A DNA stretch of 64,000 bases from an archaeon (GCA_028279825.1 JANQNA010000003.1:30518-94517), one strand, 5' to 3'; shown: positions 598-64,000, numbered from the stretch's first letter. The notes: generated from the sequence alone by a model not told the origin. Numbers and translations are program-made.

Positions 598-1494
598 TTA
601 TGTGACAACAAACGTCCAAGTTGCCGGTTTCATGGTACCTTCAGGTATTCCCTTTGGTATCCATACGTCTGCCGTGACTTTTTCAATGTCGTTAGGTGCC
701 ATAGGACCTGCAGTTATCCAGTCAGATGCTGTACAAGTCGTTGCATTGAATGCACCGGTTCTTCTGTCAAAGTTGTAGAAGTATACCTTGTCACATTCCC
801 ATCCAACTGCCACACAAGAACCGTCCAAAAAGTGACCTGATCTTGTTATCCTGAAGTAACTGAAGTTTGTATCTCCACCCTCTCTCGTTATATCCGACAC
901 AGTCGGAGTTCTTGATTCAATAGTACCGTTGTCAGGATCGTCTTCTATAGCAAACTGAGCAAGACTGTCATTACATTGCCCAAGCGTCGGTGTTCCTGAA
1001 CCATTCCCGATAGCCCAGTAAAAAGCAGCACTTGCATTTCTCAAGAATCCTTCACCTACTGGATCGTCTATGTCACTACGATCCGTATTGGATATAGCTT
1101 CCGTCCAGTTCCATTCAAGTCTTCCTGCCCAGAAGTATGTTGAAGTTGATTCATTCCTAAAGGTCAGAACAGCACCTGCACTGTAGTCAAGTGCATATGA
1201 AGAACCATAAGGTCTGTCAGTTTCATTTGTTATTGTCGTAACAAATGCATACATGTTTGTAATATTTGTAGAACCGGTATTCTTGACGTCTACGTTAACA
1301 GTACCACCTGCCTGACCAGGTGTTATGCCGGACCAGTTTATCACAGAAGGCGTAACTGTTATTTCGGTCAATGACGTAACGCTAACATCAACAGTAACAT
1401 TGTCGTCTCCGTAAGCAAAAACAATATCGGATCTCGATACTAGCAGAAATGCTGTGGCGAATACAAGCACCAGTACCAATATCCCAACTTTCAT
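598..1494 (-). CDS. Secreted protein rich in N-glycosylation sequons, paralog 2
   Basis: 298-aa ORF with an N-terminal signal/TM (MKVGILVLVLVFATAF) and more than 12 NxS/T sequons. It is about 85 % identical to ORF 1555..2472 and has no recognisable catalytic motif. Confidence 0.75.
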   Translation of the reverse strand: MKVGILVLVLVFATAFLLVSRSDIVFAYGDDNVTVDVSVTSLTEITVTPSVINWSGITPGQAGGTVNVDVKNTGSTNITNMYAFVTTITNETDRPYGSSYALDYSAGAVLTFRNESTSTYFWAGRLEWNWTEAISNTDRSDIDDPVGEGFLRNASAAFYWAIGNGSGTPTLGQCNDSLAQFAIEDDPDNGTIESRTPTVSDITREGGDTNFSYFRITRSGHFLDGSCVAVGWECDKVYFYNFDRRTGAFNATTCTASDWITAGPMAPNDIEKVTADVWIPKGIPEGTMKPATWTFVVT

Positions 1495-7136: not shown

Positions 7137-7634
7137 TTAAAAGGCCTCTTTTTCCTTGTCGTTTTCCACGTTTTTCATTCTCTCGTCTAAAGAGCCAACG
7201 GCTGCAGCAAATATCTGCCTTACTTCGTTAAGCCTGTCTTCTATACCAGCTAATTTACGTGAAAGCTCATTGTACGAAGTACCTATTTCCACTTCTACAA
7301 GATGCCTTACATCAGCTATTTTATTGTCAACGAATGAAACCTGCTTTGCAACATCATCCTTGATTTCATCAGTTTTTCTTGAGATAGAATCAACTTTTTG
7401 ATTTATTTCTTCTATTCGCTTATCGTTGTCAAATCTTAACGTATTCAGCGCATCCTGCAACCCAACCTTTTGCAATATTACCACCAGTATAAGCAGAACA
7501 AATATTACAGTTATAGCGACCATGTCAAATAACTCTATTGCTATAATTGCCAGAACCAGCAGATATAACGCTATCAGAATAAAATCGTATTTCATTAAAA
7601 GAAAAATACCCAGAATATTCTTAAAGCTGTCCAA
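7137..7634 (-). CDS. Hypothetical membrane-anchored coiled-coil protein
   Basis: Two N-terminal TM helices are followed by a heptad-rich coiled coil (KVDSISRKTDEIKDDVAKQVSFVDNKIADV...). It is inserted between L1 and L11. Confidence 0.6.
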   Translation of the reverse strand: MDSFKNILGIFLLMKYDFILIALYLLVLAIIAIELFDMVAITVIFVLLILVVILQKVGLQDALNTLRFDNDKRIEEINQKVDSISRKTDEIKDDVAKQVSFVDNKIADVRHLVEVEIGTSYNELSRKLAGIEDRLNEVRQIFAAAVGSLDERMKNVENDKEKEAF

Positions 7635-7669
7635 AAAAATTATGCATTACTGTGAAATTACATGCGTAA

Positions 7670-8137
7670 TTACTCTACCTTCACTTTACCTTCTGTAATC
7701 TCTTTTATCAGATCTTTCGGCGATTTTTCATCTACCAACACGCCGGCACTCTGGCATGTTCCAAGAACCTGCTTTACCTTTCCCTTTAGGTCACCGCGTA
7801 TAGAGTCCTTGCTCTTCGCTATCTTGACAACAGCGTCAAGTGTTATACTCCCCGCAAGATTCCTTGTTTTGTCCTCATTCAGCGTGCCAAGCTTGTCTTT
7901 TTTTAACTCTTTTTTGATCATTGAAGTAACAGGAGGAGATCCTACAGATATCGTAAAGTTCTTCTTGTCGTCAACAACTATCTTTACAGGCACTTCCATA
8001 CCGTCAAATGATTTTGTTTTCTCGTTTATCTGGTTGACAACATCACCTACATTTATGCCTAGAGGTGACAATGTTGGTCCTATTGGCGGTGCAGCCGTTG
8101 CATGGCCGCCTTTTACTAGCACTTCTACTGTTTCCAT
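7670..8137 (-). CDS. rpl11: Ribosomal protein L11
   Basis: 155 aa. The N-terminal METVEVLVKGGHATAAPPIGPTLSPLGINV is the canonical L11 signature. Confidence 0.9.
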   Translation of the reverse strand: METVEVLVKGGHATAAPPIGPTLSPLGINVGDVVNQINEKTKSFDGMEVPVKIVVDDKKNFTISVGSPPVTSMIKKELKKDKLGTLNEDKTRNLAGSITLDAVVKIAKSKDSIRGDLKGKVKQVLGTCQSAGVLVDEKSPKDLIKEITEGKVKVE

Positions 8138-14734: not shown

Positions 14735-14854
14735 GGGTTCGTAGCTCAGCTTGGATAGAGCATTAGCCTTCTATCTTCGGAAGAAAGCTAAGGGTCGCGG
14801 GTTCGAAAACTGTATGAGAGCTTTGCTCTCCGGTCGATTATCCCGTCGGGCCCA
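14735..14854 (+). tRNA. tRNA-Arg (anticodon TCT) with a 12-nt intron at 37/38 and a ~32-nt insert in the T-loop
   Basis: Acceptor GGGTTCG/CGGGCCC+A. D arm GCTC-AGCTTGGATA-GAGC. Anticodon stem TTAGC/GCTAA with loop CTTCTA|tcttcggaagaa|A. Exon nt 32-35 CTTC pair with the intron 3' end GAAG to give the 4-bp BHB helix. T stem GCGGG/CCCGT encloses TTCGAaaaCTGTATGAGAGCTTTGCTCTCCGGTCGAttat. A T-run follows. Confidence 0.8.
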
Positions 14855-14871
14855 CTTTTTTAATTGTGGGA

Positions 14872-26386: not shown

Positions 26387-26450
26387 TTGATTGCATGACG
26401 TACGTATTACGTCTATCTATTTAACTAAAACGTAGTATTTAAAAATAGAC

Positions 26451-39066: not shown

Positions 39067-39214
39067 TGGGCCGCGTGAGATTTGAACTCACGACCTCCTG
39101 CTAACCTAGATCACAACGATGTAAACTGTATGACGCATCTTGAATGCGTCTTTCTACTTCTTATCGTTGTGTGTCATATAAGACAGGTGCTCTACCAGGC
39201 TAAGCTAGCGGCCC
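39067..39214 (-). tRNA. Intron-containing tRNA, anticodon reads TAT (tRNA-Ile UAU) with a 74-nt structured intron at 37/38
   Basis: Reverse complement: GGGCCGC-TA-GCTT-AGCCTGGTA-GAGC-A-CCTGT-CTTATA|intron|A-GCAGG-AGGTC-GTGAG-TTCAAAT-CTCAC-GCGGCCC-A. Exon nt 32-35 CTTA pair with the intron 3' end TAGG to form the 4-bp BHB central helix. The intron holds a 9-bp helix CACAACGAT/ATCGTTGTG and an inner hairpin GACGCAT-tcaag-ATGCGTC. Confidence 0.7.
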
Positions 39215-39223
39215 GATCTGTAT

Positions 39224-39272
39224 TACGTAAAGCAGAAAAACGCCCCAAAGAACGTCAGTCAATTTACGTCTA
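39224..39272. promoter_or_regulatory. Conserved palindrome-rich intergenic element, copy 1
   Basis: TTACGTaAAGCAGAAAaACGccCCAAAGAACGTCAGtcaaTTtACGTCT is about 80 % identical to the element at 62624..62673. It lies in the upstream region of the minus-strand tRNA. Confidence 0.5.
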
Positions 39273-39498
39273 TAGACCTAACAACTGATTGATTAAAACT
39301 CTTTTAAGCTTTCAGAAAGCGATGGAACAAAAAAAAGCAGAAAGGACTTAACAATAACAAAAACAGTCCTAAATTAACCCGATTTATCTCTTCTTCTTTT
39401 TCTTTTTTGCCATTTATATCACCATTAGATAAAATAATGACGCTATTCCATATATATATTTTTCCGTAAGACAAAAATCAATTCTTTTAGAAAAAAAT

Positions 39499-40925: not shown

Positions 40926-41030
40926 GGGCCTGTAGTCTAGTGGTATGACGTCTGCTTCACACGCAGGAGACCGGCGGTTCGATAGCTGTATGAGAGCTAC
41001 GCTCTCCAGTCGAGTGTCCGCCTGGGCCCA
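40926..41030 (+). tRNA. tRNA-Val (CAC) with a ~32-nt insert in the T-loop
   Basis: GGGCCTG-TA-GTCT-AGTGGTAT-GAC-G-TCTGC-TTCACAC-GCAGG-AGACC-GGCGG-TTCGAtag[CTGTATGAGAGCTACGCTCTCCAGTCGA]gtgt-CCGCC-TGGGCCC-A. The insert block is shared with tRNA-Arg. A T-run follows. Confidence 0.75.
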
Positions 41031-41059
41031 TTTTAATATTTTTCTTATAAGGAATCTCT

Positions 41060-46019: not shown

Positions 46020-47147
46020 ATGCACTTTTCAGCACCTGGAAAACTGGTAGTTTCGGGTGAATGGGCGATACTGGAAGTCGGAAACAGGGGATTGGTTGCT
46101 TCTGTGAACAACCGCGTTCACGTAGATATTGATAAAAGCGATGATATAGTTATCACAGCCAGTGAGTTTGGCATTGAAGACGCGAAAGCAAAGTACAGTA
46201 ACGGGCAGTTAACTGTGGACGTTGATGAAGAAAAGAAGAAAACACTTAACCTTCTTTCAAGGGCAATTGCCACGTCTTTGAAGTATCTGGAAGAAAAAGA
46301 AATTAAGATAAAGACGTTCAAGATAAAGACGTCCAGTAAAGATACGCAGTTTGACGTTAACGGGGAAGTCAAAAAGATCGGTTTTGGTTCTTCGGCAGCC
46401 GTCACTGTTGCCGCTATAACAGCTGTTTTGGATTTTCATGGCTACGCCTATCAAAAAGATGAAATATACAAGCTCGCTACAATAGCGCACTTCTACGCAC
46501 AGGGGAAAATAGGATCAGGTTTTGACGTAGCAGCTTCAACATACGGTGGATTGTTTGTTTATTCAAGATTTGATCCAAAATGGTTGACCGAAAAGGTAGA
46601 AGCAGGTGAAAAACTTGGCCTGATCGTAAATGAGAAGTGGCCGGGATTTGTTGCTGAGGTACTGGAAGTTCCGAAAGACTTTCATCTTCTGGTCGGCTGG
46701 ACAAAAGATTCCGCATCAACAAAGGAAATGGTAAAACAGATGAACGTATTCAAGGAAGGTCATAGAGACGTTTATGATAAACACTTCTCTGGCATAGCTG
46801 CCTTGGCAGCTGAAGCCATAACGGCATTCAAAACAAACAACAAAGAAAAGTTTTTGGAGCTTTTGCAAAAAAACGAACAACTACTTTCAGATTTGGGCAA
46901 AGCCAGCGGTGTCAACATAGAAACGCCTGAACTGAAAACTCTATCGGAAGAGGCCGCTAAGGCCGGCGCAGCCGGTAAGCTCTCAGGCGCCGGAGGCGGT
47001 GATTGCGGTATTGCCGTATGCTTTGACGGAGCCGTAGCAAAAAAGATAAAAGAAGCATGGAAAACAGCAGGGTTGCATCTTGTAGACGTGACTATAGACA
47101 GAGAGGGTGTTAAAAAAGATAAATCTGTTTTTAACCTTTTCCATTAA
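46020..47147 (+). CDS. Phosphomevalonate kinase (GHMP/ERG8 type)
   Basis: APGKLVVSGEWAILE, GFGSSAAVTVAAI and SGAGGGDCGIA. 375 aa. Confidence 0.75.
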   Translation: MHFSAPGKLVVSGEWAILEVGNRGLVASVNNRVHVDIDKSDDIVITASEFGIEDAKAKYSNGQLTVDVDEEKKKTLNLLSRAIATSLKYLEEKEIKIKTFKIKTSSKDTQFDVNGEVKKIGFGSSAAVTVAAITAVLDFHGYAYQKDEIYKLATIAHFYAQGKIGSGFDVAASTYGGLFVYSRFDPKWLTEKVEAGEKLGLIVNEKWPGFVAEVLEVPKDFHLLVGWTKDSASTKEMVKQMNVFKEGHRDVYDKHFSGIAALAAEAITAFKTNNKEKFLELLQKNEQLLSDLGKASGVNIETPELKTLSEEAAKAGAAGKLSGAGGGDCGIAVCFDGAVAKKIKEAWKTAGLHLVDVTIDREGVKKDKSVFNLFH

Positions 47148-59912: not shown

Positions 59913-60140
59913 CATAGGTTTGTCCCCGCCAAAAAATTTCACAACAAAAAAGAAGCAGGGGAAACAAGACCGTTTAGCAAACAATCTTATCACTAATAAA
60001 ATCTGTATCCAGTACATTTAGATTCATTAGTGCCCTATTCATCAACCCTTAGTATGAATGTTGATGCTTATAAGCTTTTTCACCACGATAGAATAAGCAT
60101 AAAACAGACTAAAGTTTCGCAGAAACTTTTTTCATTTCAT

Positions 60141-60254
60141 GGCTGCTATGGTGTAGCTTGGTTAGCATATGGGCCTGTGGAAAGCTTTCCATGACTTCAA
60201 AAGCGGAAAGTTTACAGTAAGCCTCTGGGGCGGGTTCAAATCCCGCTAGCAGCC
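60141..60254 (+). tRNA. tRNA-His (GTG) with genomically encoded G-1 and 39-nt canonical BHB intron
   Basis: G-1 pairs with C73. GCTGCTA-TG-GTGT-AGCTTGGTTA-GCAT-A-TGGGC-CTGTGG|39-nt intron|A-GCCTC-TGGG-GCGGG-TTCAAAT-CCCGC-TAGCAGC-C. Exon CTGT pairs with intron ACAG (central helix), and intron AAGCTTTCC pairs with GGAAAGTTT (outer helix). Confidence 0.85.
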
Positions 60255-60307
60255 CTCAAACCTTTTCTTTAGTAAAGAAAACCTTTGATGGAAAAAGAAA
60301 CAGTTGT

Positions 60308-62518: not shown

Positions 62519-62623
62519 ATTACCACCATTAACTACTCAAAGGTAATTATTCAAGTATTTAAAGATTCCGGCATAATCAATGCTTGACTCTTACTTCTTA
62601 GAAAACGGAATAATAAAAATAAA

Positions 62624-62673
62624 CTGACGTTAAGCAGAAAGACGTTCAAAGAACGTCAGAAGATTAACGTCTC
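62624..62673. promoter_or_regulatory. Conserved palindrome-rich intergenic element, copy 2
   Basis: CTGACGTTaagcagaaaGACGTTCaaaGAACGTCAGaagattAACGTCTC. There is an 8-bp outer inverted repeat CTGACGTT/AACGTCAG and an inner perfect palindrome GACGTTC-aaa-GAACGTC. It ends about 17 nt before the ATG at 62690. Confidence 0.5.
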
Positions 62674-62689: not shown

Positions 62690-64000
62690 ATGGAAAAAAT
62701 AGTACCGGATACGAGTGTACTCATATCAGGAAAACTTACAGAACTAATAGAAAAGGGAGAAATTTCAGAAGCAGAAATCATAATCCCAGAATTTGTCGTT
62801 GAAGAGCTCAGAGCCCAGGCGTCTAAAGGACGCGAGATAGGCTTCAAAGGGCTTGAAGAGCTGAAGAAACTGAGAACAGTTTATGAAAACGTTAACGTAA
62901 CAAAAACAGGAAGAAGGCAGACTTATGAGGAAATACAGTTAGCCAAGTATGGTCGTATAGATGCCCTTATAATGGATGTGGCCCGTGATAACAGTGCTAC
63001 TATCTATACAGCCGATTATGTGCAATATCTGGTAGCAGAGGCAGAAGGCATAAAGACTAGATATTTCAAGGCTTATGAAGAAAACAAGAAAATAACGCTT
63101 TCTGACATGCTGACACCAGATACAATGAGTTTGCACCTGAAGGAAAAAACAATACCTGTTGCAAAAAGAGGCAAGCCGGGTGAATTTGATCTTGTCAAAG
63201 TATCAGAAGAGCCAACAACTGCCGAGCAGCTAGAAGTTATAATCAAGGAAGTTATGGATGCAGCTCGTTACAAAGACGATTCGTTCATAGAGGTCGGCGG
63301 TCATACCGCCACAGTAGTTCAGCTGGGTGACATGCGAATAGCTATAGCCAGACCGCCTTTCGCAGATGGCATAGAAGTTACAGTTGTCAGGCCGATAGCA
63401 AAACTTGGTTTAGACGACTATAAACTGTCTGATAAATTAAAAGAAAGAATGATCGGCAGAACGGAGGGAATATTGATAGCAGGTCCTCCGGGCTCAGGAA
63501 AGAGTACGTTTGCAGCCAGCATAGCGGAATTCTTTGAGGCCAAGGGCAAGATAGTAAAAACGATGGAATCTCCAAGAGACCTACAGGTCAAGCCGGAGAT
63601 TACACAGTATTCTAAGCTGAAAGGATCTTTCGAGAACACAGCAGACATGCTTTTGCTTGTAAGACCTGACTATACCATTTACGATGAAGTTCGTAAAACA
63701 AACGACTTTGAAATATTTTCTGACATGCGTTTAGCCGGTATAGGCATGATTGGTGTTGTTCATGCAACAGAACCAATTGACGCAGTCCAGAGATTCATCG
63801 GGCGTGCGGAACTTGGCATGATTCCGCACATCATAGACACAATTGTTTACATAAAAGACGGTAAAGTAGAAAAGGTCTATTTGGTGACTTTGACTGTCAG
63901 AACTCCAACAGGCATGACCGAGGCAGATTTGGCCAGGCCGGTTGTTGAAGTAAGGAACTTTGAGACAAACGCACTAGAATATGAGATCTACACGTACGGT
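62690..64000 (+). CDS. PIN-domain / PhoH-like P-loop ATPase with KH region (3' end beyond window)
   Basis: N-terminal PIN (MEKIVPDTSVLISGKL...IIIPEFVVEEL), Walker A AGPPGSGKST, a KH-like C-terminal part. No stop codon falls within the window. Confidence 0.7.
   Translation, partial: MEKIVPDTSVLISGKLTELIEKGEISEAEIIIPEFVVEELRAQASKGREIGFKGLEELKKLRTVYENVNVTKTGRRQTYEEIQLAKYGRIDALIMDVARDNSATIYTADYVQYLVAEAEGIKTRYFKAYEENKKITLSDMLTPDTMSLHLKEKTIPVAKRGKPGEFDLVKVSEEPTTAEQLEVIIKEVMDAARYKDDSFIEVGGHTATVVQLGDMRIAIARPPFADGIEVTVVRPIAKLGLDDYKLSDKLKERMIGRTEGILIAGPPGSGKSTFAASIAEFFEAKGKIVKTMESPRDLQVKPEITQYSKLKGSFENTADMLLLVRPDYTIYDEVRKTNDFEIFSDMRLAGIGMIGVVHATEPIDAVQRFIGRAELGMIPHIIDTIVYIKDGKVEKVYLVTLTVRTPTGMTEADLARPVVEVRNFETNALEYEIYTYG

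Follow-up and report, generated by a model that had tools for sequence, protein, structure and literature searches.

The DNA analysed here (a stretch of 64,000 nt, hereafter the window) comes from an organism that is, as judged from the names of its closest homologues, a DPANN archaeon of the Aenigmarchaeota. Two of its genes form the setting of this study. The one at the downstream end of the window had been described in a first-pass annotation as a PIN/PhoH ATPase. Its assignment as an ATPase with a PIN domain stands, but the PhoH part does not: the product is archaeal PINA, composed of PIN, ATPase and KH domains, and it matches Sulfolobus PINA (PDB 5F4H) with an E-value of 2.5e-112. The PINA family has been described as a Holliday-junction migration helicase (PMC6061704). 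The other gene, located upstream of the thermosome gene, encodes tRNA-Ile(UAU) and is interrupted at the canonical position by an intron of ~75 nt (about 39102-39176). At the opposite end of the window, positions 1-2544 hold three paralogous genes or segments in tandem, which recur about every 960-975 nt and are 72-92% identical (families D1-D4). The coordinates of the main features are collected in Table 1.

Upstream of each of the two genes sits one copy of a ~50-nt element. The first-pass annotation had reported such a pair, about 80% identical, close to the start of the ATPase gene in one case and upstream of the intron-containing tRNA (UAU) in the other, and in opposite orientations relative to the adjacent genes. 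All of this is borne out. Both copies were found where they had been placed; copy 2 (62627-62672) aligns with copy 1 (39225-39271) over 47 nt at 80.9% identity and with a single 1-nt indel; 16 nt separate the end of copy 2 from the ATG at 62690, and 10 nt separate copy 1 from the 5' end of the tRNA; and the two copies are indeed inverted, each taken relative to its own gene. When the copy-2 region was compared by blastn with the rest of the window, copy 1 was returned with an E-value of 1.5e-6, and the consensus pattern of the repeat had no match in 100 shuffles. These two are also the only strong copies in the 64-kb window. Thus, a covariance model made from the copies and run without filters scored copy 2 at 80 bits and copy 1 at 67 bits, with the next-best match in the window at 13 bits (13.4).

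Other candidates for membership were considered and rejected. A further blastn match at 46301-46365 (E 0.002) proved to be an AAGACGTYCA-rich stretch in a coding ORF that cannot form the hairpin, and a reading of the element as direct repeats (ACGTYNNAAG units) was dropped, there being no enrichment of such units outside copy 2. Scanning a contig collection that does not contain the host or its sister genome with the pattern CAGAAARAYGN{3,4}CRAAKAACGTC gave six chance-level matches, in unrelated bacteria. In addition, a scan of viral contigs returned a 27-nt exact identity, AAAGACGTTCAAAGAACGTCAGTCAAT, in L031 (IMG/VR UViG_3300021197_001172; 837-863, minus strand), which corresponds to the inner hairpin of copy 2 plus the 3' flank of copy 1. 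The site falls within a long phage ORF whose product looks like a tape-measure protein, the contig is higher in GC and the flanks are unrelated; the identity is probably a coincidence, though a statistically unexpected one.

Table 1. Positions of the repeat copies, their host genes and associated elements in the 64,000-nt window
Feature	Position	Strand	Remarks
GACGUAauacgUACGUC hairpin, 11 nt upstream of tRNA-Asn	26397..26413	-	9.9 bits; GACG-headed
tRNA-Ile(UAU) gene	39067..39214	-	Rfam tRNA, 53 bits; missed by ARAGORN
Intron core with the same nested architecture	39114..39169	-	Weak, sense-oriented third relative of the module; 13.4 bits, full-length, third best in window
Copy 1 of the module	39224..39272	-	Predicted pre-tRNA-Ile(UAU) 5' leader; antisense to copy 2 relative to the transcript
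Conserved tRNA-Ile promoter element AGCTTAAAAGA (BRE/TATA)	39300..39310	-	TSS predicted near 39275, leader 61 nt long
TATA-like box GTATTTAAAGA of the PINA promoter	62555..62565	+	Equivalent box in 7/7 orthologous loci
Invariant 13-nt block ACTCTTACTTCTT	62587..62599	+	Predicted 5' end of the PINA leader; 13/13 identical in seven loci
Copy 2 of the nested-hairpin module	62624..62673	+	Sense orientation, PINA mRNA leader
PINA gene (PIN-ATPase-KH; Holliday-junction migration ATPase family)	62690..64000	+	Extends past the window end

The nested hairpin and its relatives

Two inverted repeats had been pointed out in copy 2, and both are present. The repeat GACGTTC-aaa-GAACGTC occupies 62641-62657, and CTGACGTT (62625-32) is the reverse complement of AACGTCAG (62652-59). 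The second of these pairings is seen in copy 2 alone and is not common to the other family members. The pairings common to all members are those of site 1 with site 4 and of site 2 with site 3, the former being, in copy 2, the pairing of GACGTTAA (62626-33) with TTAACGTC (62664-71). The plan of the module is therefore a two-tier one, with an 8-bp outer stem, a purine-rich internal loop of 7/6 nt (CAGAAA), a 7-bp inner stem headed by GACG...CGUC and an apical loop of 3-4 nt. In copy 2, the outer stem joins 62626-62633 to 62664-62671 and the inner stem joins 62641-62647 to 62651-62657, leaving a 5' internal loop GCAGAAA (62634-62640), an apical AAA and a 3' internal loop AGAAGA (62658-62663). 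The fold has an MFE of -17.5 kcal/mol with a z-score of -4.0, and none of 200 shuffles folded as well. Copy 1, read on the minus strand, forms its outer stem between 39269-39263 and 39231-39225 and its inner stem between 39256-39250 and 39245-39239 (GACGUUC/GGGCGUU, with three G.U pairs), and it is predicted to be a self-contained folding domain within the whole pre-tRNA.

Relatives of the module were found in other genomes as well. The sister genome (L001), whose PINA is 91% identical, carries a homologous element in its PINA leader, for which the MFE fold is the same nested one as in copies 1 and 2. The tRNA-Ile intron of L029 contains a full copy in sense orientation (34 bits, E 6e-5). A weaker nested copy with the inner stem GACGUGC/GCACGUC lies upstream of an unrelated gene in L020 (197-243). 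The outer stems are GACGAAAAU/AUUUUCGUC in L001, GACGUUAA/UUAACGUC in copy 2 and ACGUAAA/UUUACGU in copy 1, with compensatory changes of the form UUAA/UUAA, AAAAU/AUUUU and UAAA/UUUA; that of the L029 intron copy, GCGAAA/UUUCGC, is of a different sequence and has no ACGT. The inner stem of L001 (GAUGU/ACGUC) includes one G.U pair on the mRNA strand. The apical loops (AAA, GAAU, GUA, AAG) are not conserved, and the most conserved positions of the module are the GACG/CGTC heads.

How far these pairings have been maintained was quantified on alignments. Three sequences aligned gave 89% of cells paired and two double changes. In a ten-row alignment (A3), which is model-fitted and leans towards structure, and which includes both strands of two loci and thus overstates the number of independent members, 94% of cells were paired as opposed to 31-49% with the partners slid, and seven pairs had changed on both sides; these pairing values were reached by 0 of 500 shuffles. 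When five members were aligned with MAFFT (A4), the 3' arms of L029 and L020 came out misplaced, and this alignment was not used for a second covariance model.

Wobble pairs add information on the strand. Relative to copy 2, the inner arm of copy 1 carries three transitions, which produce three G.U pairs on the minus (tRNA-sense) strand as against three A.C mismatches on the plus strand. Counting all members, six of six wobble pairs (three in copy 1 and one each in L001, L029 and L020) fall on the predicted sense strand, for which the probability by chance is about 1/64. This bias fits RNA-level selection or a transcription-linked mutation bias, either of which supports the inferred direction of transcription. 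On the strength of these sequence comparisons, the module appears to be a conserved, cis-acting RNA structure whose pairs are kept by compensatory and wobble changes, among few independent members; covariation between complementary arms would also be expected from a purely DNA-level palindrome.

The window also holds a weak third relative, in the tRNA-Ile intron (Table 1). Its core has the hairpin GACGCAUucaagAUGCGUC (39132-39150), an A-rich loop and, as outer stem, nine base pairs (CACAACGAU/AUCGUUGUG), and it is identical to copy 2 at 28 of 38 positions. The word AAGUAGAAAGACG occurs three times in the window, in copy 1, copy 2 and the tRNA-Ile intron only, where 0.17 occurrences were expected. 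Compared with this intron, those of L019 and L029 each contain one additional inserted GACG hairpin, close to the 3' end and at the same position in both. A pairing between leader and intron was considered as the main pre-tRNA fold and rejected, as both the MFE and the centroid structures keep the local hairpins.

Leaders of the tRNA-Ile and PINA genes

The promoter element of the tRNA-Ile gene, AGCTTAWAAGA, is conserved among the relatives, and its distance from tRNA +1 differs between them. A leaderless spacing is found in L022 and L030 (24 nt each) and in L026 (26 nt), and a longer one in the window (85 nt), L019 (87 nt), L029 (103 nt) and L020 (74 nt). The extra leader sequence of the long-spaced genes consists of perfect hairpins that are mutually unrelated. 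In the window, copy 1 probably spans about +4 to +52 of a pre-tRNA-Ile(UAU) leader of ~61 nt, counted from the predicted TSS, and so would make up essentially all of the extra sequence. A module in the tRNA-Ile leader is peculiar to the window, being absent from the sister genome (L019), and no module was found in the tRNA-Ile genes of L022, L026 and L030.

Just upstream of the tRNA-Ile promoter, a tiny ORF, MAKKKKKKR* (39383-39412, minus strand), is preceded by a good Shine-Dalgarno (GGTGATATAA-ATG) and is conserved in the sister genome as MAKKKKKK* (L019 146-172, plus strand), with a hairpin and a T-run coming after it. L020 has, at about 7601-7755 on the plus strand, a tRNA-Ile(UAU) with an insertion of ~45 nt in the D-loop region (GGTAAGCTTTCCAGAAAGCTTAATCAAAGCGGAAAGCTCAGGATAGAGC) plus an anticodon-loop intron, a gene that received no Rfam call. 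Between a conserved 155-aa gene and the tRNA-Ile promoter, L020 (6621-7493) and L022 (1901-2776) carry a PDDEXK_19 + HTH gene. This gene is missing from the window, which suggests that the tRNA-Ile neighbourhood is a rearrangement hotspot.

Other tRNA genes of the window have unusual structures as well. A 66-nt repeat with 77% identity (14800-14865 and 40976-41041) turned out to be the 3' part of two tRNA genes (14735-14862 and about 40926-41031, both on the plus strand) that had been missed by ARAGORN and by the Rfam gathering thresholds. They appear to be tRNA-Arg(UCU) and tRNA-Val(CAC), and the T-loop of both is broken by a homologous hairpin intron of ~31 nt with a GAGAGC-nnn-GCUCUC core. 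The sharing of this intron, at one non-canonical site, by two different tRNAs suggests that it has spread within the genome. A further intron-containing tRNA (60142-60254, plus strand) is preceded by a perfect 8-bp hairpin, AAAGTTTCgcaGAAACTTT, at 60111-60129, between a GCTTATAAGC promoter and the tRNA, and is followed by another perfect hairpin, TTTTCTTTAgtaAAGAAAA, at 60263-60281. A recurring feature of this genome seems to be the presence of hairpins before and after its tRNAs, in leaders and trailers.

For PINA, upstream regions were compared among seven loci (window, L001, L008, L002, L009, L011 and L032) whose proteins are 82-91% identical. The same promoter frame is seen in all seven, with the TATA-like box followed after 24-26 nt by ACTCTTACTTCTT. 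In view of its invariance and its spacing from the TATA box, we take this block as the 5' end of a long PINA leader. Between the block and the Shine-Dalgarno lie 100-150 nt that cannot be aligned among the seven loci and that always contain one to three strong hairpins. Copy 2 probably corresponds to about +38 to +87 of a ~103-nt PINA mRNA leader in the window, the TSS being predicted from the TATA spacing and from conservation. Given that copies 1 and 2 both lie downstream of conserved archaeal TATA promoters, they are probably transcribed as leader sequence.

When six of the leaders were folded, four gave MFE structures in which the block (UUACUU) is paired with the Shine-Dalgarno (AGGUGA), a pairing that in the window closes the loop containing copy 2. 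Both partners of this predicted pairing are invariant. We propose that the invariant block, together with its predicted pairing to the Shine-Dalgarno, may constitute a conserved translational control leader for PINA. The frame as such, namely an invariant 13-nt 5' end, variable hairpins and a Shine-Dalgarno, is strongly conserved and previously undescribed. The occupants of its variable part differ between lineages. The module is present in the PINA leaders of two sister genomes (window and L001), L008 retains the inner hairpin alone, and the module is absent from L002, L009, L011 and L032, of which L032 (from the same genome as L020) represents a third lineage with other hairpins instead. Downstream of PINA, L002 (12240-12260) and also L003-L007 have an intergenic, 9-bp GACG-headed perfect hairpin, GACGCATTCttcGAATGCGTC, the stem of which resembles the tRNA-Ile intron hairpin of the window (GACGCAT...ATGCGTC).

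Perfect hairpins in general show no overall enrichment in the window (41 against about 32 simulated); the excess concerns the GACG-headed class only. Thus, hairpins of the form GACG-(x)n-loop-(x')n-CGTC number 4 in the window where 0.37 were expected, and 10 in twelve related loci where 1.7 were expected, giving 14 in total compared with 2 for the reversed head CGTC. The non-coding ones are found in the PINA leader, in the tRNA-Ile intron (window, L019 and L029), upstream of tRNA-Asn and in the tRNA-Ile leader of L019. The tRNA-Asn hairpin, GACGUAauacgUACGUC, is at most a possible distant relative of the module.

Alternative readings of the module

At the leader positions where the window carries the module, relatives carry unrelated perfect hairpins or, in the leaderless spacing, nothing. 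This patchy, non-orthologous distribution and the 'empty' leaderless state argue for an insertion or duplication module, as opposed to an ancient dedicated regulatory site. The reading that we favour, at a probability of about one half, is that of a small REP-like or intron-like hairpin module of the insertion type, which has landed in transcribed non-coding stretches and persists there as an RNA hairpin; its function and its mobility are both what we infer. Such a module would spread at the DNA level by duplication or insertion into leaders and tRNA introns, in a manner that would resemble REP-type elements or the 'transposing' tRNA introns of Thermoproteales. Once inserted, it would persist as an RNA hairpin formed by the transcribed strand, whichever of the two that is, and its role would be at most a generic, structural one as a stable, self-contained domain. 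In the PINA leader it would sit in the loop closed by the pairing of the UUACUU 5' end with the Shine-Dalgarno, and in the pre-tRNA it would be removed together with the leader. The case for mobility is built on about five members at four kinds of site, and neither a transposase nor a target-site duplication, nor any other mark of insertion, was found.

The first-pass annotation had offered two interpretations, an array of ACGT-core operator sites or a small structured RNA. An operator array would have a dimeric or tetrameric DNA-binding protein occupy four ACGT/GACG-CGTC half-sites downstream of both promoters and block transcription. It draws on the four ACGT cores of copy 2, spaced by 14, 12 and 14 bp, on the promoter-proximal position of both copies in either orientation, as is seen with operators, and on the GACG/CGTC heads being the most conserved positions. 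The cores, however, are lost where the pairing is retained: 4/4 are kept in copy 2, 3/4 in copy 1 and in L020, 2/4 in L029 and 1/4 in L001, with base pairing kept throughout, and a half-site that is not conserved across copies speaks against an operator. Moreover, the bases between the heads vary yet stay complementary, which a protein half-site does not need and which favours a hairpin, and the three inner-arm substitutions of copy 1 break the half-site but keep the RNA pairing on the transcribed strand. Operators are expected to overlap the BRE, TATA or TSS of the promoter that they regulate, with the gene of the cognate regulator nearby. Here, going by the predicted TSSs, the copies probably begin downstream of the transcription start, copy 1 by some 4 nt and copy 2 by some 38 nt; a tRNA intron is among the places where relatives of the module are found; and there is no linked gene for a DNA-binding protein, the neighbouring 106-aa ORF, which is divergent, having no Pfam match. 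We therefore do not retain the operator interpretation, which we consider very unlikely. The alternative, a small structured RNA, survives in part. The conserved two-tier hairpin agrees with it, but a stand-alone small RNA gene does not follow, as both copies are embedded in longer mRNA or pre-tRNA leaders, within promoter-to-gene intervals and without a promoter or an oligo-T terminator of their own. Although the hairpin is compact, stable and about 55 nt long, as a small RNA might be, we find stand-alone small RNA genes scarcely credible, and the same applies to a chance resemblance, which is excluded by the E-value of the pair (1.5e-6) and by significant relatives in other genomes.

The GACG head and the CAGAAA loop are not explained by a structural role, and this keeps alive the idea that the hairpin is bound by a protein. 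A trans-acting RNA-binding protein or nuclease might recognise the GACG...CGUC hairpin with its 5' CAGAAA flank both in the pre-tRNA-Ile intron and in the PINA leader, and would couple PINA to tRNA-Ile, or autoregulate PINA via its KH/PIN domains. In line with this, AAGYAGAAAGACG and the hairpin occur in sense in both introns (window and L029) as well as in copy 2 and L001, the GACG head stays constant where the stem interiors vary, the tie to tRNA-Ile(UAU) exists in two genomes and at different positions, and PINA does have a KH domain (PMC6061704). We nevertheless hold such a shared protein-binding motif to be unlikely, considering that copy 1 is antisense and hence presents different loops, that the apical loops are not conserved, that the motif is absent from the four PINA leaders (L002, L009, L011, L032) and three tRNA-Ile genes (L022, L026, L030) named above, and that PINA, in the activities published for it, acts on DNA junctions and not on RNA (PMC6061704). 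The inverted arrangement raises yet another reading, in which the pre-tRNA-Ile leader (copy 1), once excised, anneals to that of the PINA mRNA (copy 2) and alters how this mRNA is translated or how stable it is; the tRNA leader may also pair with the tRNA's own intron. The predicted duplex of the two leaders reaches -60 kcal/mol, against -35.7 for the separate folds and -21.5 +/- 3.6 for shuffled leaders, that of leader and intron reaches -43 against -36.3, and the complementary internal loops GCAGAAA and UUUUCUGC are single-stranded in both folds. Such complementarity, however, is the automatic outcome of two inverted copies, both partners are held in stable hairpins, and the sister genome keeps copy 2 but has a tRNA-Ile leader without copy 1, so that the pairing is not conserved. 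Being automatic and not conserved, it leads us to rate an antisense function as very unlikely.

Having set these readings aside in favour of an insertion-type hairpin module, we would note a bolder form of the latter, in which GACG-headed hairpin modules make up a mobile, intron-like family in Aenigmarchaeota that colonises tRNA introns, tRNA 5' leaders and even mRNA leaders. We regard this as a rather doubtful proposition. If true, it would supply sequence-level evidence for a process that creates and moves archaeal tRNA introns; the same process would turn leaderless tRNA genes into genes with long, structured leaders, and inverted copies would yield antisense pairs, such as that of the tRNA-Ile leader and PINA mRNA, that could be recruited for regulation. 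What is at hand is one ~50-nt hairpin in a tRNA intron, a tRNA leader and an mRNA leader across closely related DPANN genomes, and this bears on how archaeal tRNA genes gain introns and why the tRNAs of some lineages are leaderless. The sister genomes with the 'empty' state or with other hairpins offer concrete, datable insertion or loss events for population metagenomes. In addition, a conserved leader frame is now defined for PINA, a core archaeal recombination ATPase. Should the module be merely a neutral passenger, it would be a modest addition to the small palindromic repeats, extending them to archaea.

Comparison with known systems

Searched against the curated RNA families of Rfam 15, the sequences gave tRNA matches only, the best others being noise (E 0.3-1). 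Several known classes were also compared by structure and rejected. An archaeal BHB intron boundary has two 3-nt bulges on opposite strands with a 4-bp helix between them, and inspection of the MFE and centroid structures found no such 3-4-3 arrangement in copies 1 and 2. Archaeal H/ACA sRNAs consist of a lower stem that is directly followed by an ACA box, a pseudouridylation pocket and an upper stem bearing a K-turn or K-loop. The outline of the module is similar, but its 7-bp upper stem ends in a 3-nt loop and lacks G.A pairs, the lower stems of copy 2, L001 and L029 are not followed by an ACA, and there is no Rfam match; a K-turn reading was ruled out by inspection and Rfam. In box C/D sRNAs, a C box (RUGAUGA) and a D box (CUGA) flank the guide regions; CUGA does occur in the module, but UGAUGA is found on neither strand, again with no Rfam match. 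An intrinsic terminator or attenuator was dismissed in the absence of a T-run after either copy on the transcribed strand. Archaeal MITEs and palindromes derived from IS200/IS605 resemble the module in being short, non-autonomous, hairpin-forming intergenic repeats. MITEs are 100-400 bp long and have terminal inverted repeats and target-site duplications, so that a module of ~50 nt, with no direct duplication flanking copies 1 and 2 and no linked transposase found, is not one of them.

A known general class is formed by 5' leaders whose structure sequesters the ribosome-binding site and by 5' stem-loops with a stabilising effect on transcripts. The PINA leader is similar in that copy 2 is part of a long leader with an invariant 5' end able to pair with the Shine-Dalgarno, and in that some hairpin is always present although the interior hairpins vary among species. 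It differs from them in having no conserved ligand- or protein-binding pocket.

Of the kinds on record, the module comes closest to two, namely tRNA intron transposition in Thermoproteales and bacterial REPs, in particular the CGTC-tagged REP super-family (Di Nocera et al. 2013, PMC3733652), to which Rickettsia RPE-4/-6 and Neisseria dRS3 belong. REPs are palindromic stem-loops of 20-40 nt in non-coding, mostly transcribed DNA, with variable stems and a conserved tetranucleotide; some lie inside genes or RNA genes, and they are thought to act as RNA hairpins (PMC3733652). The CGTC families have no dedicated transposase, a RAYT / IS200-type transposase being associated with the GTAG families only (PMC3733652). 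The module shares with REPs the small palindromic hairpin in non-coding DNA, the variable stem and the conserved tetranucleotide. However, the CGTC tag of a REP is unpaired and at one end, whereas the GACG/CGUC of the module is paired and at the stem foot; REPs have an 8-9-bp stem starting with A-T, a 4-5-nt loop and a CCA tail, whereas the module is two-tiered, with an internal loop and no CCA tail; and REPs occur in 20 to thousands of copies, mostly downstream of genes, whereas the module has two copies in 64 kb, both in 5' leaders. Furthermore, tagged REPs have been reported in bacteria only (PMC3733652), and the host of the module is an archaeon. Lacking an unpaired terminal tag and a single stem, the module was not classed as a tagged REP.

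Finally, the tRNA intron 'transposition' of Thermoproteales (Fujishima et al. 2010) concerns short, near-identical, hairpin-forming introns at non-orthologous archaeal tRNA sites, a pattern from which spread at the DNA level is implied (reviewed in PMC4090602). Those introns are BHB-bounded and inside tRNA bodies, whereas copies 1 and 2 lie outside the tRNA body, without a bulge-helix-bulge, and in a different clade, the DPANN. The resemblances are that the module is found in the tRNA intron of one genome and in the tRNA leader of another, and that the apparent tRNA-Arg(UCU) and tRNA-Val(CAC) in the window share a homologous T-loop intron.
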